Assembly: GCA_002269645.1 (NCBI GenBank)
Contig: NIVC01004454.1
Location: forward strand, 1-45,288
Direction of reading: 5' to 3'
Length of the DNA: 45,288 bases
Origin: Macrostomum lignano
Lineage: Eukaryota
A program made the translations under genes and the position numbers. The notes below the pieces were generated by a model. The model was not told where the DNA came from and searched no databases. It was given only the letters and a program-made list of their open reading frames with translations. Below, one piece after another: positions 3,501 through 41,018 of the stretch; position 1 is the first letter of the stretch; each line of letters begins with the position of its first letter.

Positions 3501-5816
3501 AACTAGAACTAGCAACTACCTCCTGCCTAATTGTGGGCCTTTTCATATTGCTTGCTCTGGTTCCAGAACCAGAACCAATTTGTGAAGTATAACTTTTTGT
3601 CTCCATAACTAGAGGGAGATACGTGCTATAAAGTTTTTATTATTGAATGACAATCGCCAAGAAGAAAGTGAAAAATTGTGCTAAGTTAGGTTGTTAAGGC
3701 AGTCAAATATTAACAGAGTTTAATAGTTATACTGCTGTTTTTCTTGGAATTCCGAACCGATTCTGGTTCTGGAATTGGTAATATGAAAAGGCCCTGTGTC
3801 ACTGCATAGGGCCATTATCAAAGTCCATTCGTTAGTATAAAATCTAAAGCATATATATACTCTATTGTGCATATGTATATGATAATATGTATTTTCTATA
3901 TAAAAAATATAAAATTCTAATCTAATGGGTGCATGCCTTATGCCTTTTTCCCTAAGTCTACCACTAGCATGGGAATAGGGTAGGTAGCCACTTAAAAACA
4001 ACTCGAATTATATTGTTAAAATACTATGGGCTTCATTATTTTAACAAACTATTTGATTATATATTTTTCTTTCTGTAGATATATATATCTACAGAAGGAA
4101 AAATAAGCTTGATTAGAAACTAGTTAAACCAAAACTGTTGAAAATTTTCAAAGGAAAAAAATCCAAAAATATTTTTCTTATTCAACAGTTCTTATATGCA
4201 ATACATCTTCTGTGTCATTTCAAATCTAGTATTGTTGCATACTATGTCTCTCCCTCTTTAAACCCTTCTTTCTAATGGTAAATTTATAAACTAGTGTAGA
4301 TTATTATATTTGAAAAGACCAACCCCTACAGCATTTTAACAATATCAAAAAAGAGATTGTTGGCTATCTCCCATCTTACTACATGTTCCCACCTTTATAT
4401 CCCAATAGACAAACAGTTTTAGAAATAGAAATATGTTTATCTACTTAGCAGATAAAATGACTAACACTTGTAGTTGCCTCCCTCCCAGATGTAAACTAAA
4501 AGAAAACTAAAGGGGGGCAAGCTAATTTTGCCAAAATGCAGAGCCACCCCTGGGTCTTTAAATTCTAAAATACACCTTCCCCCATTGGAATTTTTTTGGT
4601 TATACTACTAGTCCCATGACTCCAATTATGCATACAAAAGTAGAGGCTTGCTATAACCAAATATTTTTATGAATACTGGGTATTTATTGATGTAGCCAAA
4701 GATTTAAATCTCTTTCTATAGCATATATATACTATAGCTATTTTTTCTTATGATTATTTTTTAACTTTGAAAAACATTAGACCTAGATCTAAATCTAAAT
4801 GGTATCAGTTCTATAATTCAACCTATTTCAAATTAATGGGTCTTATTTTGTACTATAAATCTATAAAAAGAATGGCTAGGTCTATGTTTATCTTAATTTT
4901 AGCCCTATCATCCCAACCACATAATATATTTATAAAAAAAGTCATTTTCTTAAGTTTTTCCTCTCTTCTTCTCCTCTTGCATCTTATTCTCTTGCCTTTG
5001 CTTTCTCCTATCTATCTTCACTTTTCTCTTTTCCCTCTCCTCTCTTTTCCTTTGGCCTGCAGTTAGGTGCTAGGTTCTCTTTCTAGCCCCAAGGTAAAAA
5101 AGTTTGCCAACCCCTGATCTATAATGATATAAGAGCTTAATTTTTTACAAACCCAAAAGCCTTTTAAATTTGTATTCATTCTGATTCTATGACTTTTTTG
5201 TTTTTATTTCTACCATATTTAATCCCTAAGCATAAATGCCTATGCTACAAGTATAAACACAAAGGCTTCAATCATTTATATGCAGTGTCTTAAGTTTCAT
5301 TGGATAGAGAACAGGTATTATAAAAGATGCAGCTTAAGAGCTGTTTAAGTGGCTAGTTACAGAGGATAGCTAGACAGAGTCTTTTAAAATGCATTTTTCC
5401 TTTTCATGCTAAGAAGCAGACCAAATAGCATGCTGGGTGTGGCTATGCATTGGTGCCTGCCAGTCTCAAGTTTGGTTAAAAGTGCACAGATTACACAATT
5501 ACTTGGGGTTGCAACTCCAACCCCAAGTAAATCCAAGTAGATTGCGATGTGACTGAGACAGTTTGGCTGAAAAAAGCGGCGCCACGCTCGTCCCATGCCA
5601 TTTCTCGCAAAGAGCCACACAAGCATCTCAATTTTTCTTTCTTACTGCGCCAATTGGACAGACAGCTACTAGTCTGTATAGTTCACCTCAGTCTCGTAGA
5701 CAAACGCTGTGCAGAGTTTGCCCAAAAAGAATAAAAGGAGAGAAAGGTGTTTTGCACAGTAGTGTGTCGGTCTAAGCGTTTGCTAGACTTTAGTGGGCAA
5801 CATCTCGCTATTAGCC

Positions 5817-6561
5817 ATGGCAGCTTGTTCCTCAGAGATCGACTCTACTGTGTTCCTGCGCTGGCGACAGCCGTCACCGGCTCCGGCAGCCGAGACTGAG
5901 CGCCGACGACAACAACTGCGCGAAGATTTCCGGCGAAAATTTGGCGCAATTGAGCAGACTCAACCTGCAGGTGATTATAACCACGGAACTGCCAAGTCTT
6001 TAATTTTTTTAAAACTTGTTAAACGTACTCACTTTCTACATTTTGCAGTTGCTCAACCAAAACAGCAGTCGCCATCAAAAGTCGTTAGGCCTGACCAAAT
6101 TAAATCTGATACAAAGGCGTCCAGAGTGCAGCCAGTGCGAGTAAAATCATTGCCTCGACAAGAGTAAGCTGTGGTTTGAGCTTGACTAGTTTGCAATGCA
6201 ATATGTTGGCTTGCTGCAGATTTAGATTCTATATTTCTAACTGCTGAATTATAGCTGTCAGGCGGCTGCTGGCGTTTCGGTGTCACCGAAGTCTGCCGCT
6301 CAAGCTCCTGTGTCCGTGCCTTCGCAGCTGCGTTATATTCGTCTGCTGTCGCCTGACACCCGGGCCAACCGATGGATGCACACCACCTGGCACCACCTGC
6401 CGCCTAATCCGGACACTAGCCGGGGCAATTGTCGGGCCTCCCATTTTAGCACTGCGTTGTCTAGCGGCTCCGACTGCGGCCATTTTCGAATACATCCTGA
6501 CTGGGGCTGGGACGCTCCGCCATCTCAGACCGCTGGCGAGCCAGACTGCGCCAAGCATTAA
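5817..6561 (+). CDS. Putative 3-exon orphan gene, about 191 aa (exons 5817-5970, 6049-6163, 6255-6561); further upstream exons possible
   Basis: ATG at 5817. Intron 1 is CAG|GTGATT...TTTTGCAG (phase 1) and intron 2 is GA|GTAAGC...TATAG (phase 2). The joined exons total 576 nt, stay in frame and end at TAA 6559-6561. GC-rich exons in an AT-rich background. No family recognised. Confidence 0.5.
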
Positions 6562-7174
6562 CCTGTGACGTTGTGGCGCATTATTAAAACGCTTGACGAA
6601 AACTGTTTCGCTTTTTTGTTCGACCTTCAAGGTCTGGAATATGAATGAAAATATTTTTAAAAGATATATTTTTATCTAGGTATAAGTTATACGAGTCTTG
6701 GCGACTGGCGTAACACGATTAACCGAGCATGATTAGGTACCACCAGCTAATGGTTGAACTGGCAATGTTATTGACTTATAAGCTGCATAATGCCGCTTTT
6801 AAAAATCTGTAAACAAAACTAGGTACCATAAACAAGACTACTAACATTCCGAAAATACAAAATAAGTTACAAACTTTTATTGTAAGAAGACTCGGAATGT
6901 TTATTTTTGATAATTACTTTGACGTGGATGCGTTTTATACTACTTAAACATGCCTTGGATGGATATTTCGTACAAAGAGAAGGGGGTCTATTTCCGTTTT
7001 AGAAAATACATTATAGCGCGGTTATGATTAAACCGAGAGCGCATTATGAAGTGTCAAGTCAATATAGTCTAAGTTAATCAACTGAATCTGGGTTTTCGTT
7101 AAACCTGAATGTTAGTAACGGTCTGATGGAGTAAGTTGTTTACTGTTGGCTTCATTACAGCTCTGTCTAGCTTA

Positions 7175-8480
7175 TTAGCTAAAACTAGGGTCATGGTGGC
7201 AGCCCAGATGTCTCTTCGCGAGAGGCGCAAAAGGAGCCACTGGAGCTGATGAGAGGGCTGGGGAACAGCGCCTCTGGATTGCCTGCAGGTAGTGCAGTGC
7301 TGGGTCCTGATCCACGATTTTATGTAATTTTGGGTAATCATGGATAATTTTGTCGGTAGAACCCAACATGTGGAAGAGTTTGATACAGTCGAGGACTGTA
7401 GCAGAGTTTACGCTGCAGTCACCATGATGGCGTGCAAGGCAGCTTGACTGTCTGAAAGGAAAATGATCGAGGCTTTTTTGGCATTCCGCTTGAGTTTCTC
7501 CAGCTCCGGGTTCCACGTACCACGGCGCCGAGGTGCAAGGTCTTGCCTTTGTAGGCACGGACAGGGCAGGCCGCTTCATTACTACAGCCTGTCAGCGTCT
7601 CAGCCGTATGATCCAATTAACATCTTCCCAGGTCTCAATCGGACATACCTCCGTGAGTTCCTGCAAGTGAAGTTCAAAGGGTGTAGTCTTATAGGCCGCC
7701 CAATCGGTGTTGCAGATATTACGCGCCTCCAAGTGATCGAGGACTGGGGTTTAGTGTCCGCGATATTGAAGGCGATGAAGCATTCGTCAAACAGGGAGGG
7801 CTCCTCAGATCAGACTCTCCACTCCTCAACTCTGTCAAGATCTCAAGGTAACGAGTGTGGCATCGAGAACATCAGCCCATCTGTCATTGTTGAAGGTAGG
7901 AATGCTTGCACGGTTGTAGAGCTTGAGATTTGTGTTAGAGATGAGGGCCAGAGTCTCCTCCCCTCTACATTGGTGTCTTTGCTGCCCCAGTGCTAGTGCT
8001 TATGGATGGTTTGCATTAAGGTCGCCCCCAAGCTCAGCGTTCTGGAATTCTGCGCAGCAGACTCTCGGGGTATATAGGGTCCTGTCATCTGAAATATATA
8101 GATGACATATCTCCATCTCAGAGATCAGTCCTCAGCCAAGCCTGGAGATGCTGGCAGCGAGAGGATGTAGAGCCACCTGTTCCAGGGCCACAATTAAATC
8201 AGAGTAACCAGAAGGAATGTTGGGCAACTTACCGGTTGCGCATCCATGAGGGTTCCTGGATCAGGATGAAGTCTGGCCTGTACAGCTCAGTAACCTTCAT
8301 CAGATTAACTGATGCAGATAGACATGCTATAAATTTATGTGTAGAAAGGATTTCGCTTCTTTAGCAGCGTGAAGCTTAGCCATACTAAATGCAAAACTGG
8401 CTTGAACCTCGGGCCATCAAGGAGACTTCCATGGTCTCCTCACCCCGCCAGCTTTCTTGAACTCATCAACAAAACCGATT
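7175..8480 (-). mobile_element. Decayed, internally deleted non-LTR retrotransposon (LOA/Lian-like, APE endonuclease plus RNase H remnants)
   Basis: Minus-strand fragments across frameshifts and stops: FILIQEP (~8260), GDLNANH..WGS (~7985-8020), NRASIPTF, EWRV..EEPSLFD, NTDWAAYK, ACPV..PWY..LEKLKRNAKKA, then IIFLSDSQAALHAI (RNase H) and CRQSR..WLLLRLSRRDIWAATMTL. Confidence 0.8.
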
Positions 8481-12348: not shown

Positions 12349-12409
12349 TTAAACCAGTGAGACGAAGTCAAGGCAGTTGGCACGAGAGGCGCAGGTTCGA
12401 GCCTGGCCC
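12349..12409 (-). repeat. Split direct repeat B2 (61 bp)
   Basis: Identical to 12667-12727. Confidence 0.97.
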
Positions 12410-12491
12410 TATTGTACGAGTATTCGAGCGTATTTATTAACTTTAATTTACCGGACTAAAAGCCAAATAAAAACCTTGGAGACTTAAAAGC

Positions 12492-12666
12492 GAGAAAAAA
12501 AAATCAATACGCGCTTGGCGGGTCAGCGACAGCCCGCACCGCATTAAAAAACCGCCACCCAGGCCGCGGGCACGCGACCAAGGCCCGGCCCACCACCCCC
12601 GCACCAACGCACAAGAGCCACGCCCCACTGGTTTAACACCCAACCAAGCTACGCCCGGTCGGACCA
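12492..12666 (-). repeat. Split direct repeat A2 (175 bp)
   Basis: Matches 16584-16757 except for three homopolymer-length differences. Confidence 0.97.
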
Positions 12667-12727
12667 TTAAACCAGTGAGACGAAGTCAAGGCAGTTGGCA
12701 CGAGAGGCGCAGGTTCGAGCCTGGCCC
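12667..12727 (-). repeat. Split direct repeat B1 (61 bp), abutting A2
   Basis: Identical to 12349-12409. The junction reads ...GGACCA|TTAAACCAG... on the plus strand. Confidence 0.97.
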
Positions 12728-12771
12728 AACCCAAACCAGAAAGTTCGACATAGAGAGAGAGAGAGAGAGAG

Positions 12772-13815
12772 TTAGAGCGCGCCAACCCGACGAGCCAAGC
12801 CATGCACAGCCGCCCTGGCATCCGAGTCCCGAACAGATAGATAGCGAAACACTGAGTTGCCCTTCCAGTCGCCCAGCTTCTTGATCATCGGCAGTGGAAC
12901 ACCGAGCTGCATGGCTGCCGTAGCGCCGCCCCGCCGCAGCCCGTGGCCAGTGAACTCGCGTGGCGACAAACCCGCCGATGTGCAGAGCGAACGAAGCCGG
13001 CTATCAAACCTGCTAGCCGTCAGAGGCAACCATCCCGCGGACGACCACGTGGAGAACAGGTGAACCGGACGCGGCGCCTGGCCGATTCGGTTTGTCCGTA
13101 GCTGCCGCTCGAGCGCACGGAACGGACACAGGACACACAAGCTTCCATCAGGCAGTTTCGGAAGAAACACTCGCTGAACTCGATCGCCAAACTGGTTGGT
13201 CTTCGAATGCCGCACAGTGAGCTCACAGTCGTACTCTGAAAAGACGATGCTCGATGCTGCCAGGTCGCACCACAGATCGAGCTGCCCCGATTGCGTCGTC
13301 ACATTCGCTTTTCGCAGCATACCCCACCAGGCTGCCAGAACTGCTGCCCAGAACGCGATGTCACTCTTCAGACGTTGGTCCAGGTGGGCGTGTAGCTTGA
13401 GGAGATCCGCGACTCTGAATGGCTCCCTTGAGCGCTGCTGCCGACTGAGACACCGGCGAAGACCACGAAGCACCAGCTTAACCATCGGCGACTCGCACGG
13501 GTCCGGCCGGCCGAGAGCTCTGAAGTACAGCGAGACCGCGTTAGCATACGCCTGGCAACTCCGAAAGGCTGACAGCCGGGTGGACAGCTCAGCCAGGTAT
13601 TCAGCCACGTGCACAGGCTCTGCCCGCAGCGGCGTCAGGTGCCGGGAATTGCAAAATCGCAGCCAAGACGCGAGCTGCGACCGGTAACTCCGCTTCGTGC
13701 GGGGCGCGTAGGCATTGCCCAGGATAAATGCGCAACGCTTGCTGAGGCGGTCGGGAGTCTGGCGCGGAGGGCCTGTAAAATGAGAAAAACGGAGGCAGCA
13801 GGGCAGAAAGCATGG
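12772..13815 (-). CDS. Tyrosine recombinase (phage-integrase family) of the retrotransposon; open frame with no ATG start
   Basis: The frame stays open upstream of the tracked GTG as far as a TAG at 13816-13818 and includes the SAM-like N-domain (AYAPRTKRSYRSQLASWLRFC). Catalytic set intact: R (MLRKAN), K (HSKTNQ), H-x-x-R (HGLRRGG), W (GDWKG), Y (FRYL). Confidence 0.95.
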   Translation of the reverse strand, partial: PCFLPCCLRFSHFTGPPRQTPDRLSKRCAFILGNAYAPRTKRSYRSQLASWLRFCNSRHLTPLRAEPVHVAEYLAELSTRLSAFRSCQAYANAVSLYFRALGRPDPCESPMVKLVLRGLRRCLSRQQRSREPFRVADLLKLHAHLDQRLKSDIAFWAAVLAAWWGMLRKANVTTQSGQLDLWCDLAASSIVFSEYDCELTVRHSKTNQFGDRVQRVFLPKLPDGSLCVLCPFRALERQLRTNRIGQAPRPVHLFSTWSSAGWLPLTASRFDSRLRSLCTSAGLSPREFTGHGLRRGGATAAMQLGVPLPMIKKLGDWKGNSVFRYLSVRDSDARAAVHGLARRVGAL

Positions 13816-13839
13816 CTAGCGATCTCGTTAAAACAGCAG

Positions 13840-15447
13840 TCAACAGAGCCATACACCCGAAATAAAAAAATCGCGCATTTTGTCCACGGCGTGCAGCCTA
13901 GAGCACGGGTCCGCAAAGACATGGTACCAGCCAGGCACATGAAAAGCGCGCACCTCAACCCCACGCCTAACAGCAATGAGCATGGCAGTCTGGAACAGCG
14001 GCTGCAACTCAGGCTGCCGACAGCAACCTCTGTTAATCATGCCAACAGCCGCACTAGAGTCGGAGTAGACCACGACCGAACTGTCATTTAAAAAGGCACC
14101 CCAGCGAACCATAGCCAGCAGCGGAACAATAGCTTCTTTGTACGTGATATGCTTGTCTTTAAACTTTCCTCCAGCATCCAGATCCCAATTGACGTACAGC
14201 CAATCCACCATACCGCTACCATTGCGCAAAATGGCTCCGCCACCAGCACTGCTCGCATCGGTTTCGATGATCCAGCCGTTTGTGCAACTTCTCCAAAGCT
14301 GAAAATCAGGCAGCTTCAGAAGGGCACCTCGCCACCAGAGTAAAATACGCACAGTGTCAGCGGACACACGCACTTTGTGATGTGGCTTTTCCAGGGCATT
14401 AAGCAGGTCGAACAGGGGTCTTAGGAAGCAACTCCCAGCGTGCACCACCTGGACGACCCAGCTGAGCTTGCCACAAAGCGACGAAAGCTGTCGTTTCGAG
14501 AGACGCCTGCGCTGCGAAAAGTTAAGCAGTGTGGTGCGCATTTCCTCACACTTTTCCGCCGGCACACTAAGAACTCCACGGACAGTATCAATCTTCACAC
14601 CGAGATACACCAAGCATTGCGTAGGTTCAACCACTTTATTCCAATTGACACCAAAACCTAACTGGCGAACCAGCTTAATCAGCTCTTTCAGAGCATCCAT
14701 ACACTCTTTCTCGCTCTCGGCTGCAACCAGAAAATCATCCAGGTAAACCGAAATATTGGCCACGCCGCGTCGCACCATCATCCTCTTGACCGCTTGAGTA
14801 AGCCGGTAGAAAATCTCGACCGAGGCGCAGCTACCAAAGGGTAGCCGGGTGTCGACAAGCCATGTCAGATCACGGTTGCCTTTAAAACGCCAACCAATGC
14901 CGGTCGCCTGGTAATCATCCGGATGGATCGCCACGCTTCTGTAAGCTTGCGACAAGTCAAGCTTTGCCATGAACCAGCCCTTGCCGATAGAGGCTGCAAC
15001 CTTCTTGACGGACTCAAACCTGGGGCTCAGCTTCTTCGTATAGTTGTCATTTACCGAGTAGCCCGGAGGCGTGCTGCAGTCATGAATAAGTCGAGCCTTC
15101 CCGTTATCCTTGGGAATTGCTCCCAGAGGGCTGACCATCGTAGGCTTCTTAGGCACAATCAAATACCTGCCATTCTCAATCTCTTCCTTAATTTGCAGCT
15201 CAACAGCGCGATGAAAAGTAGAAGTAGACATGTAATTGGCATTAAAAGTCTCACAAAGCCCTTTGCCATCAGTAATGCGAAAACCATTTGCGATGCCGTC
15301 TAGGATAAAATTCCGATCAGGGTCATTCTCAAGCTCAGAATCCCACGAACAAAAACGCAGGCGACCCCCTGCACTGCCAACGACAGGATTGTTAAAATTT
15401 AAAGCAGGCTGAGCATTAGGCAAAATTTTAGGATTAAAACAGAGCAT
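13840..15447 (-). CDS. Reverse transcriptase / RNase H (pol), 535 aa, uninterrupted
   Basis: RT motifs RLIHDCS, KLDLSQAY, LPFG and YLDDF. RNase H motifs TDAS, KEA, SDS and ADPCSR. The frame is open upstream to 15480 and overlaps the gag end in the -1 frame. Confidence 0.96.
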   Translation of the reverse strand: MLCFNPKILPNAQPALNFNNPVVGSAGGRLRFCSWDSELENDPDRNFILDGIANGFRITDGKGLCETFNANYMSTSTFHRAVELQIKEEIENGRYLIVPKKPTMVSPLGAIPKDNGKARLIHDCSTPPGYSVNDNYTKKLSPRFESVKKVAASIGKGWFMAKLDLSQAYRSVAIHPDDYQATGIGWRFKGNRDLTWLVDTRLPFGSCASVEIFYRLTQAVKRMMVRRGVANISVYLDDFLVAAESEKECMDALKELIKLVRQLGFGVNWNKVVEPTQCLVYLGVKIDTVRGVLSVPAEKCEEMRTTLLNFSQRRRLSKRQLSSLCGKLSWVVQVVHAGSCFLRPLFDLLNALEKPHHKVRVSADTVRILLWWRGALLKLPDFQLWRSCTNGWIIETDASSAGGGAILRNGSGMVDWLYVNWDLDAGGKFKDKHITYKEAIVPLLAMVRWGAFLNDSSVVVYSDSSAAVGMINRGCCRQPELQPLFQTAMLIAVRRGVEVRAFHVPGWYHVFADPCSRLHAVDKMRDFFISGVWLC

Positions 15448-15455
15448 CGCAGACT

Positions 15456-16573
15456 TCAGTTTTTTGTCGAATGGTTGGCCTCAGGGTGGGCCTCGAAACA
15501 GATGCGGCAGACGTGCCGGAATTTGCAGCTCGACCGGAAGCACCCCCGGCGATTAAAGTGCAAGCAGATCTCTTCCCCGTCTGGCGTTCTGAGGCTCTTG
15601 GGGTCTATTGGTTTTTGAAAACGCTGCTGCCGTGGCTGGGGCAATGACTTGCTGACTCCATGGTTTGCTGGAGTTCCAGTTCTGATTAAGTGCTTAGCAA
15701 CGAGTTGGAAAGACTCCTTGCCCCATCGCATGCCAGTTTCAGCTTGCCTAGTGCGGTAGTCCTCGTCAAAACGATTCACCTGCGCCAGGCCGAAGCCCCG
15801 TCAAACAGCTCGCCAATCTGTATTGAGTAGCGTAAGTAATTCATCAAATCAGTCGTGTCGGCAGTTCCATTTCTACTAGTCACCAGGGCACCATCCTTGA
15901 TCATCTGCATCATCAGCCTGCAATTGCCTACCAAATACTGCGCTGCCGTGATGCTATCTGGATTAGGTTTTCTGCTCTTGTAAGTGATTCGGCCACCAGA
16001 ACCATTAGCCAGCACCTCTTCCTGCTCAAAGCCGTCGAGGAAATCACGAACCAGGAGAGCCTTACGTCTACCAGAAGACTCCATCCGTTCATTGGCCCTG
16101 TTCTGTGACAACAATCTGTCAAGCAGCTCATTGCCATTATCTTCTTGGTCTAATCCAGCATCATCACACCCATCAGGAAAGTAACTGGGGCCAGCAGGCT
16201 TGGCACACTCACCGCGATTCATAGGACGCGTGGATGGACACTCGCGCTGCAGATCTCCGATCTCCCTCTTGAGTTGAGCGGCTTCCTTGCGTAGCTGCAA
16301 CAGTCTGATCTCCTTCTCCGCCTTCGCGATGTCCTCGTCCAGGCCCGCCGCCGACTCCCGAGCCGCCTCCGTACTGATGTTGTCGTCTGCTTCGGCTTCT
16401 TGCTCAGATTGCTCCATGTTCTGCAACAGCGAATCTGTCCACGACTGGTCTGGGGCTGCGAGAAGGGCGCTGACAAGGTCGGCCTTGTTGCCCCGACTGC
16501 TTATGTTAGCGTGGGCACACAAGGCTTGCAGAGCCACCTTGCTCAGGTGCATAAGTTTGTCGCGGTCAGCCAT
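15456..16573 (-). CDS. Gag-like ORF1, about 372 aa, with one 1-bp frameshift near 15784
   Basis: N-terminal SAP/HeH-like motif (LMHLSKVALQALCAHANISSRGNKADLVSAL) and a coiled coil at aa ~79-110. Restoring one base (TGG nCG CAG GTG) joins the two tracked ORFs into W.QVNRFDEDYRTRQAETGMRWG, followed by a C/H zinc-finger-like tail (CLHFNRRGCFRSSCKFRHVCRICFEAH). Confidence 0.85.
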
Positions 16574-16583
16574 TGCAAAAATT

Positions 16584-16757
16584 GAGAAAAAAAATCAATA
16601 CGCGCTTGGCGGGTCAGCGACAGCCCGCACCGCATTAAAAACCGCCACCCAGGCCGCGGGCACGCGACCAAGGCCCGGCCCACCACCCCCCGCACCAACG
16701 CACAAGAGCCACGCCCCACTGGTTTAACACCCAACCAAGCTACGCCCGGTCGGACCA
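16584..16757 (-). repeat. Split direct repeat A1 (174 bp), 5' end of the element
   Basis: Matches 12492-12666 and ends 10 nt before the gag ATG. Confidence 0.97.
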
Positions 16758-17085
16758 AAAATCTTCGAAAAATCTTGCAAGACGTTGAAAATAAGATCCT
16801 CTTTAAAGCAACACTTCTATATATAGAAGCCTAGCTCGTGGTCAGCACGCAGGAATCGTGTCTCCTCTATTTTTTGTTTTTTTTCAAGATTTTTGTTCTT
16901 AATTTTTAGCGTAGCTACAGCTATAGTAACAGAATAGTGGTTTTTCGGACTTTGAGTTTTTAAACGTTTTGTTGGCATATAATTGGAAAATAGCAATATA
17001 TGTAAGCGTACTTCTTATATTAATTCGTAGTTGTTTTGTAAGAGTCGTTACATGTATAGCAGGCTTGTGAATTTAATGAGTATAT

Positions 17086-17389
17086 AATAATAATATTAAT
17101 TGATTACACTTGCCCTAGTGGGCAGATGTGCAACCGACAGCTCAGCCGCAGCTATTGCGCGGTGCATCTGAAGGCTGCGTACGGCTGTTCAGTCCAAGAA
17201 CTGGGGGGGTCGCCACACAGCCTCAATTACCCCAGCTAATGCTGGCACCCATTTTACAGCTGGGTGAACTGAAGCAATGCAGAGTTAAGTGTCGTGATCA
17301 AGGACACAGATTGTTCTGAGTGGGTCGAGAATGGAACTCCCGACGTTTCAGTCGTGAGTCCGACGCTCTAACCACTGGGCTACAGCCCC
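17086..17389 (-). mobile_element. tRNA-derived SINE, copy 1
   Basis: tRNA-like head (GGGGCTGTAGCCCAGTGGTTAGAGCG), central tgtgtccttga...acacttaactc...ctgtaaaatgggt block and an (A/T)-rich tail. Aligns with four other copies in the window. Confidence 0.9.
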
Positions 17390-18526
17390 AAAAATTATTA
17401 AAGCTTTTATTGCAATATAATATCGAAGCAGGCTGTTCGCCTAGCAGTAAACAGACAGGTACATGTCCATCTATAACGACTGATGGTACGCTCGTACATG
17501 TAAATTTTTAGTAGGTGCCCATACTACTTAAACACGCGGGTTTCCCTTCATCACTGCAGAAAGCTTTTGAAAACCCGGCATATCTGGGTGTGAAATGTTG
17601 CAATGCTCCCACGACAGCTAATTTTCACATGCCCTTTCAACATGGTAGAAAGTTGTGTCACTATGGCTCCTGACAACAACAACAACAACTAAATACATTG
17701 TCAGCCAGTCAAGCATGGAACAATGTCACAGGGCGAGTTTGAATCGAAGATAAGCCCCTCTAAACCAGAGTATTATCATCAAGCAGACTAGCTCTTTGAC
17801 TAAAAGTCCGCTTCTTAAGGGAACCACGATTTTCTGCATTTGCTACTGGAAGTAGAGCTGTGTCATATTATTATGCAATTATATTCTGTAGCTATCCCAC
17901 TTGCATCAAATATCGAATTGCAGCCTGCCTCCTTGCATTATGAATACTGAATTTTACTCTCGAGCTGCGCGGATGGCAACTCTTACTTGATCGTATTGCT
18001 CTCAGGAGTAAGGAGTATTAAAAATCGAACTGCTACACATGCTAGAGCGCATGGTAAGCCGAATAGTAAGTCGATACGCCTACGTAATGTAATGTATAGT
18101 CGCATAGACCCAACGTCGATACGCTTTTGTGGTTTCCCCCCCCCCGGCTTAAACAATTCAAGAGCATGATACTTTCTATCTGTGCTTGCTAAGAACTTGG
18201 GACAGCTGCTTTTAGTGGGGGCGTTCGCTGGCTGGGCGCGTCTCTTCCTAGCTCTTTCTTTTTTGCTCCGTGGCTTACGACCCATTCGCCTCAAGCCTTA
18301 ATGGGAGTTCTTTACTTTCCGAGTACAAAGCGGACGGGGGCTGGCTGATATTGGGAATGGCTGGGCTGCCCTACTCTTCCCAATGGTAGCGCTGTGCCCA
18401 GTGAAGGACAAGGGAATAATTAGCAGTTCAACTTGCAGTCGCTGTTGCAGGAGCCGAACCAGCCGCTGAAGAGCCCAGCCAGTGAAATTCTTAGAAACTA
18501 GATACACCATTTCGGACTTTTATTAG

Positions 18527-24559
<6,033 letters not shown>

Positions 24560-26205: not shown

Positions 26206-29200
26206 TCAGGACTTACTAACATTGGACAGGCGCTGCACAATGTCATAGTCCAACAGTTTGTTAAACTTGCCATCTTCGTCGGTGTCGAACTGGCCATAGA
26301 CCGACAGCTCGCCCAGCTCTTCGCCAACGTTCAGCTTCTTGGACCAGACCCCGTTACCCGACCGGCCCTGCTGCAGGTCTATCCAGGTCTGGCCGTTCAG
26401 CACAACAGCCACCGCCCTGCAATGCTTGGCCTCCAATCTGAAGGTGTACTTTCGGCCAACGTCCAGGTGTTTCTGCATCGGGTCGTGCAGTAAGCAGCCA
26501 CTGAACAGGCTGGTCTGGTTCGGGTAAGGCGGCACCTTGCCCATGCCGCGCCGGCAGTCAATCAACAGGCGATACACACATTCCAGCTCTTCGCCGCCGC
26601 CAGCTTCGTCGTCGACACTTTCGGCCGTGGAAGCATCGCCACCGGCGCCTGCTGCTGCGGCTATCTCGGCGGCGTAGACCGTGAAGAAGTAGTAGCCGTC
26701 GGCAGGGCAGGCGATCCAGTACTCGGACTGCTGCTTACCGCGGCACTGCAGCAGCGCATAGTCGTCGCACTGTTCGGTGCTCTTGCCGGCCCGCTGGTAG
26801 CACTTCATCTGGTGAGCGATTTTCAACCCGGGCGAGAACACCAACGGCATGCGCAGCACCTCTTTGGAATTGTGCACGTAGTACGGATCCATCGGAGTTT
26901 TGGCGCCGTGCGAGGTTAAAAAGCTCACCCCGTACTTTTGTGCGGCCGGTGTAGCGCCAAGGAAGCCGACCTCCGGGTAGCGGCCGAGAGCCAGACGGTC
27001 GAAGTTGTTTTCAGCGCATTTTACCTGGCAAAATTGGTTGTTAAAGGTGTGTGCGTGTATTAAAGGCACACCTTTAATGAAGGCTGCGTACGGCTGTTCA
27101 GTCCAAGGACTGGGGGGTCGCCAAAAACATACCCCAGCTAGTGCTGGCACCCATTTTACAGCTGGATGCACTGAAGCAATGTACAGAGTTAAGTGTCTTT
27201 CTCAAGGACACAAATTGTTCCGAGTGGGTTGAGAATCGAACCCCTGACCTTTCAGTGGTAGAAGGACGCGATCGTAGAAAGCTTGCAGCTGCTCTCATAC
27301 ACACGATCAGAGTCGGGGCGCAAAACAATCTCACCTGAAAGCTAGCCGCTAATTCGTGCTCATTCGACGTCCAGTCCGGCGTGACGAACACGTTGAGAAA
27401 GTAAGTGCCCGGCTGAGCAGGCGAGGCCAGCACGTGCAGGACATCCCCGATGAGGCGCACCAGCGTCTTTCCCCGCATAGCGGACATGTCCGACCGGTTC
27501 TGCAGCTGGCAGCTGACGCCAACAAATTTAGTGAGGCCGATTTTCAAGCTGATCGGCCGTTCTGCGTCACCAAAGTGTCGTCGTATTTGCCTTTCTTTAA
27601 ACGCATTCCGGCGTTGAAGAATGGCGACTTGAGCAGCGGCAATTTCATGAAGTGGCTCAGCGCAATCGGCGAGCGCAATAATTGCCAACGCTTCTCGTCC
27701 GGATAGTGCTCAAAGATGTGCTCGTCAGGCTCTGTCAAGAAGTAGAAATTGTCGCAGCCCAGTCGAAGAGTTGTCTCGCCGCCCTGTTGACGAAGCCGAC
27801 GCCCGCCCCAGGCGACGTTGACAAAGCGCCAGCAGCCTTGGGTAGAAAATGCGGAAAATGTCCCTCGATCATACAATTGTTTTATTCAGCCCACGAAGCT
27901 TCAGGCCTATTTGTGAGTCGTTCAGAGAGTGCTATCTACTCTGATCCCTTGTTAAGCACTGCTATCTACTCTGATCCCTTGTTAAGCACTGCTATCTACT
28001 CTGATCCCTTGTTAAGCACTGCTATCTACTCTGATCCCTTGTGCACTGCTATCTACTCTGATCCCTTGTTAAGCACTGCTATCTACTCTGATCCCTTGTT
28101 AAGCACTGCTATCTACTCTGATCCCTTGTTAAGCACTGCTATCTACTCTGATCCCTTGTTAAGCACTGCTATCTACTCTGATCCCTTGTTAAGCACTGCT
28201 ATCTACTCTGATCCCTTGTTAAGCACTGCTATCTACTCTGATCCCTTGTTAGGCACTGCTATCTACTCTGATCCCTTGTTAGGCACTGCTATCTACTCAG
28301 ATCCCTTGTTAGACACTGCTATCTACTCTGATCCCTTGTTAGGCACTGCTATCTACTCTGATCCCTTGTTAAGCACTGCTATCTACTCTGATCCCTTGTT
28401 AAGCACTGCTATCTACTCTGATCCCTTGTGGGCACTGCTATCTACTCTGATCCCTTGTTAGACACTGCTATCTACTCTGATCCCTTGTTAGACACTGCTA
28501 TCTACTCTGATCCCTTGTTAGACACTGCTATCTACTCTGATCCCTTGTTAGACACTGCTATCTACTCTGATCCCTTGTTAGACACTGCTATCTACTCTGA
28601 TCCCTTGTTAGACACTGCTATCTACTCTGATCCCTTGTTATGCTACTACTCTGATCCCTTGTTAGGCACTGCTCTAATTCTCTTCTTTGATCATTTATTA
28701 TAGTCATCTGGTCATCAACTTGACGCAGTAACTCCCAACGTATAATCTCACCCTCAACATAGACGGCAGTCCAAGTATTGCGAAACATCCTGTTATCCTT
28801 GACATTCATCCCGGGCCTATAACCGGCGCCTTTAGAGTAGCCGTGCAAGATCTCGCAGTGAAAGCCGGCGTAAGCGCACATCCGTTTGAAGAGTTCGTGC
28901 GGCGAAACTTCGCCCATCTGAACGGCGCGCAGGCAGCCAATCAGAGTGGTCACCGGCGCCTGCGGATCGTAGGACAGCGGCTGGTTGGCTCGGGCCGTTA
29001 GGAAACGGAATATTGCTCGGCATTTCTCCACATCAGACTGGTAGCGGCCGCACAAGCTGTTCACCTGCTCGGCGAATGTATTACAATCCACGTCAAACAG
29101 TTCCATCACGTGATCGTCGATCGACTTCCAACCGTCCGGCGGCACCGTCTTGGACAGGCCGGGCGGCATCGGCTTCGGCGGCGGCCGCATCGCCGGCGGC

Positions 29201-32200
29201 GGCGTCTCCGGCACGCCGGGATTCCAGAACACGGAGCGGACCGGCTCAAGCGGACGCTGCAGAGTCGCATATCCGGCTGTACCGTCGCGCAAAGTACCCT
29301 CCGGGCCGAGGTACACATTGGTGACGCCCGGGTCCAGGTTATTCAGCAGAGTCGATGTCGAACCTACGGCCCGGAGCTGGCTGGCGTACATGCGCGGGAT
29401 TTGACCAGCATCGACCCCGGCACCTAGCAGGTCCTCGTGCGAGGCGGCCCGCATCCTGCCGGGTGCCGCATCGAGCATGCCCAGCTCGTCCTTGTATTGA
29501 GACGTCAGAGCCGCGTACTTGGCCGGGTCCTGGCTGCGCAGCGCCAGCATCATATTATTGATCTTCTCGTCTCGCTTCTGAGCCAGGTACCGTTCCAGCA
29601 TCAAGGCCAGCTCGGCCGGGTCTTTGCCGCCAACATTCATCGTCATCATGCTGGACACGACGCTGCCGGGCCCGCCTGTGGAGACGGAACCGCCGGGCAG
29701 GTCCGGGCCAAGAAGGTCCAGACTGCGGGTCCGCTGATGCTGACTGGCCGCCGAGTTTGGCGGGTACACCACCGGGGCGTAGGCCGCGGTCTCCCCAGCG
29801 CTCACTAGGAAGTCTTCCTGGGTGTCGCCCGAGCCGAACTCGTCGTCCTCAGTCTCGCCGCCTCCTTCCAGCAGGTTGCCGGAGCTGGCAAACTTCTTTC
29901 TTGGTTGGCGAGGCTGCAGCAACTGTTGTTTCTGTTGCTGCTGAAACATCTTCTGCTGTTGCTGCTGCTGCAGTTCCATCTGGGTTGACTTCGGCTGCTC
30001 CAGATCGACGCCTTTGTAGCGCTCGTCGGCCAACTCTGCCGATTTGGTCTTCTGCCGACGCCGCTCCTTCGGCCCGAGGGATCGAGAAGCTCGTTTAGCC
30101 CGGCTGAACTCGGCGTCGCGTTCCTGCTCTCGTGCGCGCCGGATCACCTGCATGGCCGCGCCGCTACCGCCGCCTGCCGCTGTGGACGAGGCTAGCGAAG
30201 AAGCGGAGGCCGCGTACGCATCCAGCGTGGCCACCTTTTTGCTGTACTTTCCCCCGCCGAACGGCTGGGCCCGGCCGGCCTGGCCAAATTCGTCGCTGTC
30301 GGCCTCGTCGTCTAGATCGCGACTGCGCGGCTTCGGCGGAGGCGGCGGCGGCGGGCGCATGTCGCGTGGCGCGGGAGATGGCGCCGGAGCGACTGCCACT
30401 GCCGTCGATTCCTCTTCCTCAGTCTCCGTATCGCTGTCCGTTTCTGTAGCCGTGCTACCGTCGGTATCTTCGTCATCCTCGACAGCAGCTCCGCTTCGAT
30501 TGTGTCTGCGAGGTGGCGGCTGCGGTTGCGACTGGGGCGGAGGCGTCGGCTGCGGCGGCGACTGCCGTTGCGGCACGTTCGCGTAGATTGGCTCATCCCG
30601 CTGCTGCTTCGGGCTCGGAGCCTGCTGATTTGGCGGCCGCTGCTGCGAACTCCTGGCTGCTACTCTGGGAGTGGCCTCTGGCGGCGCCGAAACGCTGGTG
30701 GCAGCGTCTGGCGTGACAGTCGGACCGCGCGGCTTCGGCATAGGCGGAGGTGCAGCCGGCTCGGTGGCGGGCGGTTCTGGCGTGGCGTACTGGTGCTGCC
30801 TGCCCGTTGCCTCAAAGGACTTGATCTTCTCCTTCAACGACATCTTTGACGGCGTTGGCAACGGCGGCTGCTCAGCGGAGCTGTTATCGGGGGTCAGGCT
30901 ATCCTGACTGATCCGACTGAACTTGTCGGCTAGGCTGGGTCGCGATGGAGCGGCTGCGGAGGCTGTTGCCTTCTCCGCCGGTTGAGGCTTTTGAGTAGCA
31001 GTCGTAGCGGATGACGATGAAGTTGGCGTGGTGGCGGCAACTGAAACTGCAGGTGGAGCCGGTTTCGATGGAGCAGCAGGTTCCTGTACAGCTTCTTCTT
31101 CTTCTCTACCTTCATCGTCGTCATCGTCGTCAGATGAGGACTCAAAGCTTGACGAGCTGCTGCTCTCTTCTTCAGATTCCTCTTCTTCCGAGTCAATGGA
31201 AGTCTCTTTGACTGCAACGGCAGCCGCTCTGGATTTAACAGGCGTCGGCGTCGGCGGGTCCTCCGTCTGCACCTGCATGTCGCCAACGGCAACGTCGACG
31301 TCCAGCTCTGCGTCTCTGCTCAGATCCGGGTTGGACAGCAGCAACCGATTGGAATTGGCCATGCGGCCAAGGGTTTTGTCGATGTGACCCAAGTCCTCGT
31401 CCACGTGGTCGATCGTGTTGTCCATGGAGATCAGTTCGCGAACAACGTCGTCAGCGTGCTGCTTCTTGCCAGCGCTAACCAGTCGGGCCGCTTCGGCCAG
31501 ATTCTCGTCCGATTTAGCCGACGGAGCCGCTGCCGAAGATGCCTCGGCTGCCGGTTGTCGGAACGGCTGCGGCTGCGAGGCGGCCCTGCTGGCACCAAGC
31601 GGCGGGTTCAGGCCCAGGCGTTGGTTCATTTGAGTTGAAAGTTCTCTCGATTTCGGCGCCGGTTGCGACTGCAACTTGGCACCGGGCAGAGCGCTCAGCG
31701 TCGGCACCCGGACGTAGCTGCCCGGACCCTCGTCCTCCGATGATTGCTCCGATGCCTGGGGCTGCGGCTGAGGTTGAACAAACTGCGGCGGCGTTGCGGG
31801 TTTCTTAGCCGGCTTCGGCGGCGGCGGCGGCGGTTTCTCTGGACGGCCGCGGTCTTCCATGCTGGCGATGAGGGCGCGCACACCCGGGTTCCGCTTCGAT
31901 TCAATGGCGCTACCATCTGCCGCGGCGTTGGCGCCTGCCGCCTGCGATGTCTGCGGCGGAGTTTGCCTCTGCATTTGAGCGTTTGTGACAACTGGCGTCT
32001 CCTCTATTGGTGAGGGCGGAGCAGCCTCGGTGGCGAGCTGCTTCTGCTGTTCCTGTTCGGCTTCTTGGAAGCAATCGGATGGGGCGCCTTAGAAGGCGGC
32101 GGCGGAGGCGGTGGACGCGGCCGAGCGATTTGCTGAGCTGCACCAGCCGCACTGAACGGCTTTGGGCCGAGCGGCAGCGGCGAGTATTTGGAGGCGGCGG

Positions 32201-33229
32201 CTTTTGATGCGGCTAACTGGCGGGTGAGAAGTTGACGAAGATTGTCCGGATCGTTGGGATCAGGCGGAGCGGCCGATGGGGATGCGGAGCTGTCAACTGT
32301 GTCCGCTGTCTTCTCCGGCTCAGTGGCCTCCTCGACAATGCTGTCTACCTTGCGCTGCTTACCGGCGGCGACTGCGGCGGCTGCGGTGGTTACGCGAGAG
32401 TCGGATTTGCCGAAAGATGAGCCAACGCTGGAGCTGCGACTTAGCGAAGACTCAGACTCTGAGTAGTACTCGGAGTTGCGCTCGGTTATGGTTGGCAGCC
32501 CGGCTGGATTCTGCTGCTGGGGCGGCGGCCTCCTCAGCTGGGCGGATTTGGCAGCGGCTGCTGCTTCTTTTTCTTCTGTTGCTTGGCTCTGGCCTGGGCC
32601 AATTGCTTTGTCTTGGTTTCGTGAAGTCGCTGGGCCGCTGGCCTCTGGTCACGTGATCCTGAGAGTACTTTACCAAGTCTTCTATGGAAGCGATCTGCAG
32701 CGTTTCAATCTCAGCGTCCAAGTCCTGGGTGTACAGGTCCCTGCCGACCTCCTCGTCCTCGTCCGACTCAGAATCGTCGTCAGTAGATATGGTCGAAGAT
32801 CGCTGACTCTCGTTGACGGGCTCCTCCGGCTGCTGCTCAGCTTCAGGCTGCTCCAGGTAGCACTCGCCTGAGTCGTCCGAATCGTCCGAGTCGTCCTCCG
32901 ACGAAGATGACGAAGATGAATAGCCAACGGCGATCGGCGAGTTCGTCGATTCGGAGGCGGCTGTTTCGCTTTGGCTGACAACGCCGAATTATTAAAGTCC
33001 GCCTTCCAGCGGCCGGGTTGGCCGAGCGAGTCTGCTCGTAGTCCGTGTAGAATTTGTCGCCTGGTCGCTCAGCCGTTTGCGTCGATCGTCTACGGACTGC
33101 TGGATGCCGGCTGGCGATTCGTCATTACGGCGAGGCCGGATTGAAACAGACGGCGGCTGCTGCGGGCCTCTGCCAGCCACCAAAGCGTGCGGGGACCGGC
33201 CTGCGCTCAACTTCGACTCCAGATTTTGC
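26206..33229 (-). CDS. Hillarin / KY (kyphoscoliosis peptidase)-like transglutaminase-fold protein. Exons ~33229-28752, 27836-27335, 27024-26206; start uncertain
   Basis: Core ELFKRMCAYAGFHCEILHGYSKGAGYRPG...RNTWTAVYVEG|CWRFVNVAWG...DNFYFLTEPDEHIFEHYP..WQLL is typical of hillarin-like proteins, followed by beta-rich C-terminal repeats. Introns 28751-27837 (phase 1) and 27334-27025 (phase 0) are GT-AG. There are 1-bp frameshifts at ~27554 and several in 32050-33000. Confidence 0.85.
27078..27270 (-). mobile_element. Partial tRNA-derived SINE, copy 4 (in hillarin-like intron)
   Basis: Aligns with the SINE body (ggctgttcagtccaag...ctggcacccattttacagctgg). Confidence 0.88.
27930..28673 (+). repeat. 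30-bp minisatellite, about 25 copies (intronic)
   Basis: Unit tgctatctactctgatcccttgtta(ag/gg/ga)cac, with variant blocks. Confidence 0.98.
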
Positions 33230-40462: not shown

Positions 40463-40930
40463 TCACTCGCAAGGCTTGGTGGGGTCGGACTTGTCCACCT
40501 TGTGCCGCCGGCAGTCGGGGCCCAGCACCATCTCGCACTTCAGGCTTCTGGCCAGAGGCGAAGGAAGGCAGTAGTAGCCCGAGCCGCGGGACCTGCAACG
40601 CGAGCAGCTGCCAGCGGTGGTGTAGTCGTCCGGGCTGCCGCCCTTCAGCACGCGGATGCAGCGGCCACGGACGGAGATGTTCTCGGTCTCCTGGCGGATC
40701 TCCTTGCCGCCCAGGGTCTTGGTCTCGGTCTTCGGCTCCGGTGAGCACTCTTCCTTCTCCTCATCTTCATCAGCTTCGTCGGCCTCATCGGCCTCATCGA
40801 CATTGTCTAAGAACTCGGTCCCGTCTTCGATGGAATCGTCGTCGGCGTTTTCAAAGTTGGCATAGTCAGCGCGCACCGTCGCCGCCAGTAGGGCGAAGGC
40901 GAGGGCGAGAGAGAGCAGGGCGAAGCGCAT
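40463..40930 (-). CDS. Secreted cysteine-rich protein, paralog 1 (155 aa; true start is Met69 of the tracked ORF)
   Basis: Signal peptide MRFALLSLALAFALLAATVRA, D/E-rich spacer and a 94-aa domain with 8 Cys. The start is supported by alignment with the paralog at 45052 and by a TATA-like element inside the tracked N-terminal extension. Confidence 0.88.
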   Translation of the reverse strand: MRFALLSLALAFALLAATVRADYANFENADDDSIEDGTEFLDNVDEADEADEADEDEEKEECSPEPKTETKTLGGKEIRQETENISVRGRCIRVLKGGSPDDYTTAGSCSRCRSRGSGYYCLPSPLARSLKCEMVLGPDCRRHKVDKSDPTKPCE

Positions 40931-41011
40931 GGCTGGTTGTGCTGGGCTGTTGATTGTGCAACTGAAGAGGCAACTGCCTTTGCTTGGCCGGGGCCTTTCT
41001 GCAGCGCTAGC

Positions 41012-41018
41012 ATATATA
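41012..41018 (-). promoter_or_regulatory. TATA-like box of paralog 1
   Basis: CTATATATG on the minus strand about 85 bp upstream of the ATG, at a similar distance to the TATA box of paralog 2. Confidence 0.55.

Follow-up and report, generated by a model that had tools for sequence, protein, structure and literature searches.

The element and its layout

The window analysed here is the whole 45,288-nucleotide (nt) stretch of contig NIVC01004454.1 from the flatworm Macrostomum lignano (assembly GCA_002269645.1). Its minus strand holds, at 12349-16757, a tyrosine recombinase (YR) retrotransposon of the Ngaro type with the layout A1-gag-pol-YR-B1-A2-B2 (Table 1). We suggest that a donor in gag is very probably spliced to an acceptor ahead of the YR and that the spliced RNA is the main source of the enzyme, a 453-residue fusion protein.

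The element has split direct repeats, the internal pair lying downstream of the YR, in an arrangement that is the same in the copies. A gag-like open reading frame (ORF), a reverse transcriptase (RT)/RNase H ORF and the YR follow one another on one strand, and the YR shows the catalytic R-K-H-R-W-Y set and the lambda/Cre fold. No Dam methyltransferase match was detected in the window pol; in the open copy L004 the tail after RNase H is short and the PP[FWY] motif is absent. The features of PAT-like and DIRS1-like elements (a methyltransferase after RNase H; DIRS1-like inverted repeats with an internal complementary region, ICR) were not found. Ngaro is described in passages of PMC4157794, PMC13465315, PMC9210276 and PMC8547959 as a superfamily of the DIRS order, lacking a methyltransferase and having a YR that overlaps the end of pol in the -1 frame. 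Judged from its sequence, the element is a structurally typical Ngaro, an assignment by structural features of the kind that a passage of PMC4157794 calls homoplastic.

Table 1. Features of the Ngaro-type element in the window, in 5' to 3' order of the element
Feature	Position	Strand	Basis or remark
A1 split direct repeat (5' end)	16578..16757	-	97% identity to A2; termini of copies
Exon 1: gag codons 1-120 plus 1 base, common to Gag and the YR fusion	16213..16573	-	RNA joint, gene models
SAP domain, aa 7-38	16460..16555	-	Pfam PF02037, leader profile
Long amphipathic helix, predicted coiled coil, aa 70-111	16241..16366	-	AlphaFold2, heptad scan, alignment
Splice donor GCG|GTGAGT, phase 1	16207..16215	-	RNA joint; used by P0012, P0001, P0011
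Intron, retained/alternative, 2440 nt, holding the gag remainder and pol	13773..16212	-	skipped in one X6 contig
Gag remainder: core and C-terminal Cys/His zinc-binding motif	15456..16212	-	frame broken near 15795 in the window copy
Weaker phase-1 donor-like site GAC|GTAAGG	16060..16068 (16066/16065)	-	sequence
Slippery heptamer A AAA AAC just before the gag stop	15459..15465	-	probable site of a -1 frameshift into pol
pol: RT and RNase H	13840..15465	-	in most copies the frame extends to about 13635, overlapping the YR
Pyrimidine tract and CAG acceptor, phase 1	13773..13800	-	sequence, RNA joint, conservation
Exon 2: complete Cre-like tyrosine recombinase, core-binding and catalytic domains	12772..13772	-	conserved residues, predicted fold
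B1 repeat	12667..12727	-	100% identity to B2
A2 repeat	12486..12666	-	pairs with A1
B2 repeat (3' end)	12349..12409	-	pairs with B1; termini of copies

Splice sites and the predicted product

The preliminary description of this DNA, made from the letters alone, had predicted the splice, and recomputing the positions and lengths gave the same donor, acceptor, shared phase 1, 2440-nt intron and 453-residue product. Counted from the gag ATG at 16573, exons of 361 and 1001 nt make 1362 nt, that is 453 amino acids (aa) and a stop. The donor reads ATGAATCGCG|GTGAGT (cut at 16213/16212, phase 1) and the acceptor ...CTCCGTTTTTCTCATTTTACAG|GC, also given as ...TTTTACAG|GC (cut at 13773/13772, phase 1). 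This acceptor is the most pyrimidine-rich YAG of the element (Y in 14/16, T x10); the branch-point-like motifs nearest to it lie 59 and 71 nt upstream, which may help to hold splicing partial. The window gag has only two GTRAG sites, the donor and a weaker site at 16066/16065 that had been offered as a second fit; both are in phase 1, as claimed, and the weaker one has no RNA support in the contigs of the seven sequencing runs considered below.

That the YR frame has no ATG proved correct for its N-terminus and incorrect for the frame as a whole: ATGs occur at codons 111, 166, 302 and 310 of the stop-to-stop frame, each of them past the point where the core-binding domain begins, and the first Met of exon 2 is residue 96, within that domain. 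The window copy has two defects: gag loses its frame near 15795, and near 13864 the end of pol is shifted. Both sit within the intron and leave the spliced product unaffected. They are absent in most copies, in which gag is open across the break point and pol continues over the YR start in a different frame, and they are also absent in all four sequencing runs first compared.

RNA contigs and gene models

Seven sequencing runs from six studies were compared as contigs, a form in which rare transcripts are lost. The exact predicted junction was found in one contig of run X6, in which precisely the 2440 nt from 13773 to 16212, bounded by GT..AG, are skipped; this contig has a depth of 4.3 and reaches 28 letters past the joint on its shorter side. 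Adjacent X6 contigs terminate at 13773 and at 16212. Runs X6, X9, X14 and X15 were demonstrated to be RNA, because they skip two host GT..AG introns and leave 7255-8156 without cover; the other three runs are X1, X4 and X10. The host transcript used as the RNA control, at 5405-6976 (+), is expressed and has short introns at about 5966-6043 and 6164-6254. Contig depth, higher over the YR than over pol in some runs, was set aside, because the YR stretch had served to pick the runs and the depth of contigs is no measure for ranking the parts.

The same junction (...MNRGPPRQ...) is carried by two GenBank models, PAA89852.1 (P0012), which covers the full 453 aa, and PAA84308.1 (P0001). The annotation behind both, according to the passages of PMC5730564 that deal with it, drew on mapped RNA-seq together with de novo transcripts, using TransDecoder, and was not ab initio. 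In the model P0011 this donor is again used in phase 1, and its partner is an AG in the flank, about 15.6 kb downstream of a 3'-truncated copy (L155/L169, G000:C1081), so the element is able to serve as an exon trap. Genomic deletion was considered as the origin of the joint and rejected, since, of 43 genomic matches to the region around the donor (a lower bound on the number of copies), not one stops at the donor itself. No intron-less genomic copy was found among the copies examined, suggesting that the spliced RNA is seldom retrotransposed. A GT-AG intron, a matching phase and a junction in RNA are found together here with coexisting unspliced RNA, the picture of a spliced subgenomic mRNA.

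Conservation within the genome

The copies compared comprised 32 related loci in the M. lignano genome (G000). The donor reads GTGAGT in all 17 loci in which it could be aligned and the acceptor YAG|G in all 23; the distance from the ATG to the donor is in phase 1 in 12/14 copies (exceptions L025 and L031), and an N-terminal YR ATG occurs in no near-identical copy. The gag-only relics L161-L163 read GTGCGT at the donor. The diverged set consisted of 40 loci with YRs 34-46% identical, or 41 with L004, and in all 41 the best YAG is at most 11 nt away from the colinear position, with phase 1 in 39 (exceptions L035 and L064). Acceptor-bearing loci span 11 clusters at 60% identity (long exon-2 frames). 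A phase-1 GTRAG follows the long helix in 12 flatworm families, giving introns of about 2.3-2.4 kb. The SAP pattern used to find the gags was loosened (the strict version missed most of them), the donors of L042, L053/L065 and L066 were read by eye, and for L065 the script chose a site later than the one after the coiled coil.

Donor, acceptor and phase are kept both in the copies and in the diverged families, a check that the preliminary description had called for. Among the findings that it had named as contrary, loss of the sites and an N-terminal ATG were not seen in near-identical intact copies, and an in-frame pol-YR fusion turned up in L057 alone (1/40 diverged loci), its five cluster mates lacking it. 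L013 and L057 are lone copies with gag-pol or pol-YR in a single frame, unlike their own families. Word-indexed protein searches gave no spliced model for any of the diverged flatworm families.

Several observations concern the ends and forms of the element. Every intact 5' end (L001-L017; window 16757-16759, 12349) has TG preceding A1, and the same two bases lie between B1 and A2. There is no evident target-site duplication, and the end pattern fits circle-junction recombination with a short-homology target. The copy L017 (G000:C2140) is internally deleted, with A1 joined to the pol end, the acceptor and YR exon intact, and gag and the donor gone.

Relatives in other animals and in metagenomes

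A profile search returned RefSeq models from amphioxus, Glandiceps (a hemichordate) and Patella (a limpet) that have 130-310 residues before the YR. The amphioxus model P0166 equals P0190 over the first 173 aa of Gag and then passes directly into the YR; from the same point P0190 continues into the Gag core, RT and RNase H. The partial model P0197 reads through the pyrimidine-type stretch at which P0095 has its junction.

Of 80 metagenome loci, 71 were scored and fell into 51 families at 70%; the nine dropped were too close to the contig start (four) or lacked the YR N-terminus (five). At the YR start the best acceptor-like AG has phase 1 in 43/51 families, against at most 30/51 for any one phase in control windows inside the YR (Fisher p=0.008) and near-even phases in pol windows. 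The donor test used the 28 full gags that were long enough (9 flatworm and 19 metagenome), and the strongest donor is in phase 1 in 26 of them. Donor phase alone says little, because GTRAG is impossible in phase 2 of an open frame and synonymous shuffles already gave 69% phase 1 (p=0.003 for the difference). The strongest donor lies 129-214 codons ahead of the zinc motif, where leader and core meet, in 25/28, and the combined shuffle test gave p of about 1e-8, with a window set after seeing the data and scores of our own making.

The flatworm YRs are 21-38% identical to the outside ones, and a quick YR-only tree, built without Ngaro references, places the flatworm families together in a group of their own (SH-aLRT 91). 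The matching signals across such distant animal relatives suggest that splicing is likely how these elements make the enzyme, and we infer from the sequences that other animals use the same expression plan. Five metagenome contigs (L090, L100, L102, L115 and L125) begin and end with the same 27-127 bases, which would be expected from the circular assembly of a split-repeat element or from a DNA circle.

The leader and the recombinase

The start of gag had been described as SAP-like, and profile searches bore this out: the leader profile matches solved SAP domains (best E 3e-9). P0012 scores 23.9 bits, at the PF02037 cutoff of 23.9; 7/8 flatworm leaders are above this cutoff and the window family is just under it (23.2). 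In a Foldseek search of the leader, SAPs were among the top matches, none at E<=0.001. The flatworm Gag order is SAP, linker and conserved long helix, the helix being predicted by AlphaFold2 at residues 70-111 with pLDDT 93-98 over residues 81-110. A complex prediction with two copies of the helix (aa 68-120) scored 0.02 and was weighed neither way.

Outside flatworms a SAP was found in 0/19 leaders. Since the SAP is confined to the flatworm lineage, the general feature would be a Gag leader fused to the YR and not the SAP itself. Most outside leaders have a coiled-coil-like helix, and others a Cys/His motif with a coiled coil, or basic stretches; six of them (L082, L123, L125, L133, L149 and L152) have no Pfam match, and we take them by eye to be SAM-like.

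Exon 2 carries the conserved catalytic residues R274, K311, H397, R400, W423 and Y431 (P0012 numbering), and the best fold match of its model is Cre (Foldseek E 3e-13, TM 0.72-0.76 on target).

Weighing splicing against other sources of the YR

Poulter and Butler (2015), in the words quoted in PMC13003380, describe the Ngaro YR ORF as overlapping RT/RH in -1 and reached "probably" by programmed frameshifting. That the YR is made mainly in this way, as Gag-Pol-YR, with the splice a minor side product, appears improbable to us, although the YR overlaps pol in its -1 frame in 11/12 flatworm families, a T-run heptamer lies in phase within the overlap and could serve in 5/12, and most RNA contigs are unspliced. 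The other 7/12 families have no in-phase slippery heptamer, and the window's family is among them in spite of a -1 overlap in most copies, whereas the gag-pol boundary keeps its signals. Across the gag ends of 28 families gag-pol recoding takes two conserved forms, A AAA AAC or TGA followed by C: the heptamer is in the -1 phase in 8/8 families with pol in -1, and TGA-C (often CTA) in a readthrough-like context is present in 15/17 families with pol in frame. These conserved signals serve as a positive control for the search for recoding signals. In the 29 intact metagenome families (22/51 were left out of this count as not intact or without pol) the frame of the YR relative to pol is 0, +1 and +2 in 10, 9 and 10 (a random spread), 15 families have no pol-YR overlap and only 7 overlap in -1, and a frameshift would leave the conserved phase-1 acceptor unexplained. 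From the sequences, a -1 frameshift from pol fits poorly as the source of the YR. We consider it less probable still that the YR comes from its own internal promoter or ATG, or from readthrough of the pol stop, with incidental splice signals. This would suit the in-frame Met near the YR start in 17/51 metagenome families, the 10/29 families in which pol and YR share one frame with a stop between them, and the 237-aa public model P0013, which begins at an internal Met; in the window's family, however, the first Met lies inside the core-binding domain, 11/12 flatworm families have no early Met, and the phase-1 acceptor is retained whether or not such a Met is present. The least credible explanation is that the junction reflects cryptic host splicing of an abundant repeat, or host inactivation of the element. 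The low apparent level of the junction and the use of the donor with a chance flanking AG in P0011 agree with it, but it leaves unaccounted for a position and phase kept across families of 21-38% YR identity, often in a non-coding spacer, and an open product that is a complete enzyme, so that conservation appears to have largely refuted it already.

Splicing from gag as the main source of the YR has its own points against it. Among the joints listed, the junction occurs in one of the seven runs, in a single contig with low depth and a short overhang, and the remaining six runs show unspliced contigs spanning the acceptor; the junction RNA comes from the window's family alone. P0044, the sole diverged-flatworm model read with a SAP start, joins Gag and part of pol to the YR at a joint that is not the predicted donor; other models from the profile search join pol to the YR, and the RefSeq fusions count as gene models. 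The degenerate copies L021-L026 have deletions at the acceptor or just after it, the degenerate relics L164/L165 have no donor GT, and 8/51 metagenome families have no best phase-1 acceptor, to which the families with an early Met may be added. The donor and acceptor scores are rough and home-made, the donor window was chosen post hoc, and in the window's own family the proven donor ranks only second by score. On the other side, the SAP-coiled-coil-YR fusion by splicing, as first proposed in the preliminary description, is supported by the RNA contig, the RNA-derived gene models and conservation. If the splice is real, exon 1 might still supply only a start codon and a dose setting, with the SAP and coiled coil as passengers. 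We find this possible but doubtful: leaders vary widely between lineages and exon 2 alone is a whole Cre-like enzyme, yet the donor is never placed directly after the ATG. It leaves 97-315 codons in place and comes behind the helical module, where the Gag core begins, and keeping this module while dropping the core suggests that the leader matters.

Proposed expression plan

Two RNAs would arise from a single promoter region. One, unspliced, would be the genome and likely the message for Gag and, through -1 frameshifting at A AAA AAC, for Gag-Pol; a minor spliced RNA, starting at the gag ATG, would encode the leader-YR fusion. Splicing would be partial, so that genomic RNA persists. The fusion would be translated and act as the working integrase. 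We propose that the shared leader may bring the enzyme into the Gag particle through like-with-like helix contacts, and that the SAP may add non-specific binding to DNA or chromatin for the capture of the circle or the target.

A broader reading is that the YR of animal Ngaro-type elements is the second exon of gag, joined through one ancient phase-1 splice to an exchangeable leader that packages the enzyme and steers it to DNA; we hold the chances of this to be evenly balanced. The same even balance applies to its corollary that each element would use a frameshift or readthrough for pol and splicing for the YR.

Other features of the window

A short dispersed repeat at 17084-17393, with copies near 22380, 23929, 27078 and 41465, is very abundant in the RNA contigs and is presumably SINE-like. 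A duplicated gene pair, about 80% alike, lies at 40463-41245 and 44540-45109 (-) and encodes small proteins with a signal-peptide-like start, an acidic stretch and a Cys-rich end. A multi-exon host gene at 26206-32988 (-) has long low-complexity exons and a globular C-terminal part.

Meaning and comparison with known systems

How the recombinase of YR retrotransposons is expressed has so far only been guessed (frameshifting). If the splice operates as we suggest, the annotated "YR ORF" would be a headless second exon, and the real protein, which sits unnamed in GenBank, could be expressed and assayed. The way would be open to test integration chemistry, packaging and target choice directly in a retroelement class that is widespread and has been little studied, and Gag would gain a possible route to influence target choice. 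The element also carries a strong donor and acceptor able to splice into host transcripts, as in P0011. A full-text search found no published report of a gag-YR splice; the founding paper, the 2005 and 2015 reviews and Repbase were outside its coverage, so an earlier remark may exist there.

Ngaro as described, in the quotation given in PMC13003380, has three separate ORFs, with the YR probably reached by frameshifting, whereas in the window element a splice from gag leads to the YR, and a SAP stands at the start of Gag. The SAP is an accessory domain in Chlamys Penelope-like elements and in Zisupton, according to a passage of PMC8557442; there it is fixed within one ORF, and in the window element it is common to two proteins. 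An influence of Gag on target choice is suspected for protist Ngaros in the part of PMC8547959 that treats them.

The plan proposed here shares with several well-known systems the partial use of splicing, and differs from each of them in what the splice delivers. Retroviral env and foamy-virus pol are 3' genes expressed through spliced subgenomic mRNAs of the genomic RNA, and the env message of avian leukosis virus carries a few Gag codons. The window element would likewise serve a 3' gene from the 5' promoter by partial splicing of genomic RNA; here the spliced product would be the integrating enzyme, with a folded Gag leader of 100-300 residues in place of one that is non-coding or a few codons long. 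In Drosophila copia and Arabidopsis EVD a splice removes pol and yields extra Gag. Retrotransposon splicing sets protein ratios in those elements as it would here, in contrast to which the Gag core and pol are removed together in the window element and a recombinase results. Lambda-type integrases have an additional N-terminal DNA-binding arm. Compared with the Cre, lambda and Tn1549 enzymes, the extra N-terminal module of the window element would be a eukaryotic SAP and coiled coil, taken from Gag by splicing.

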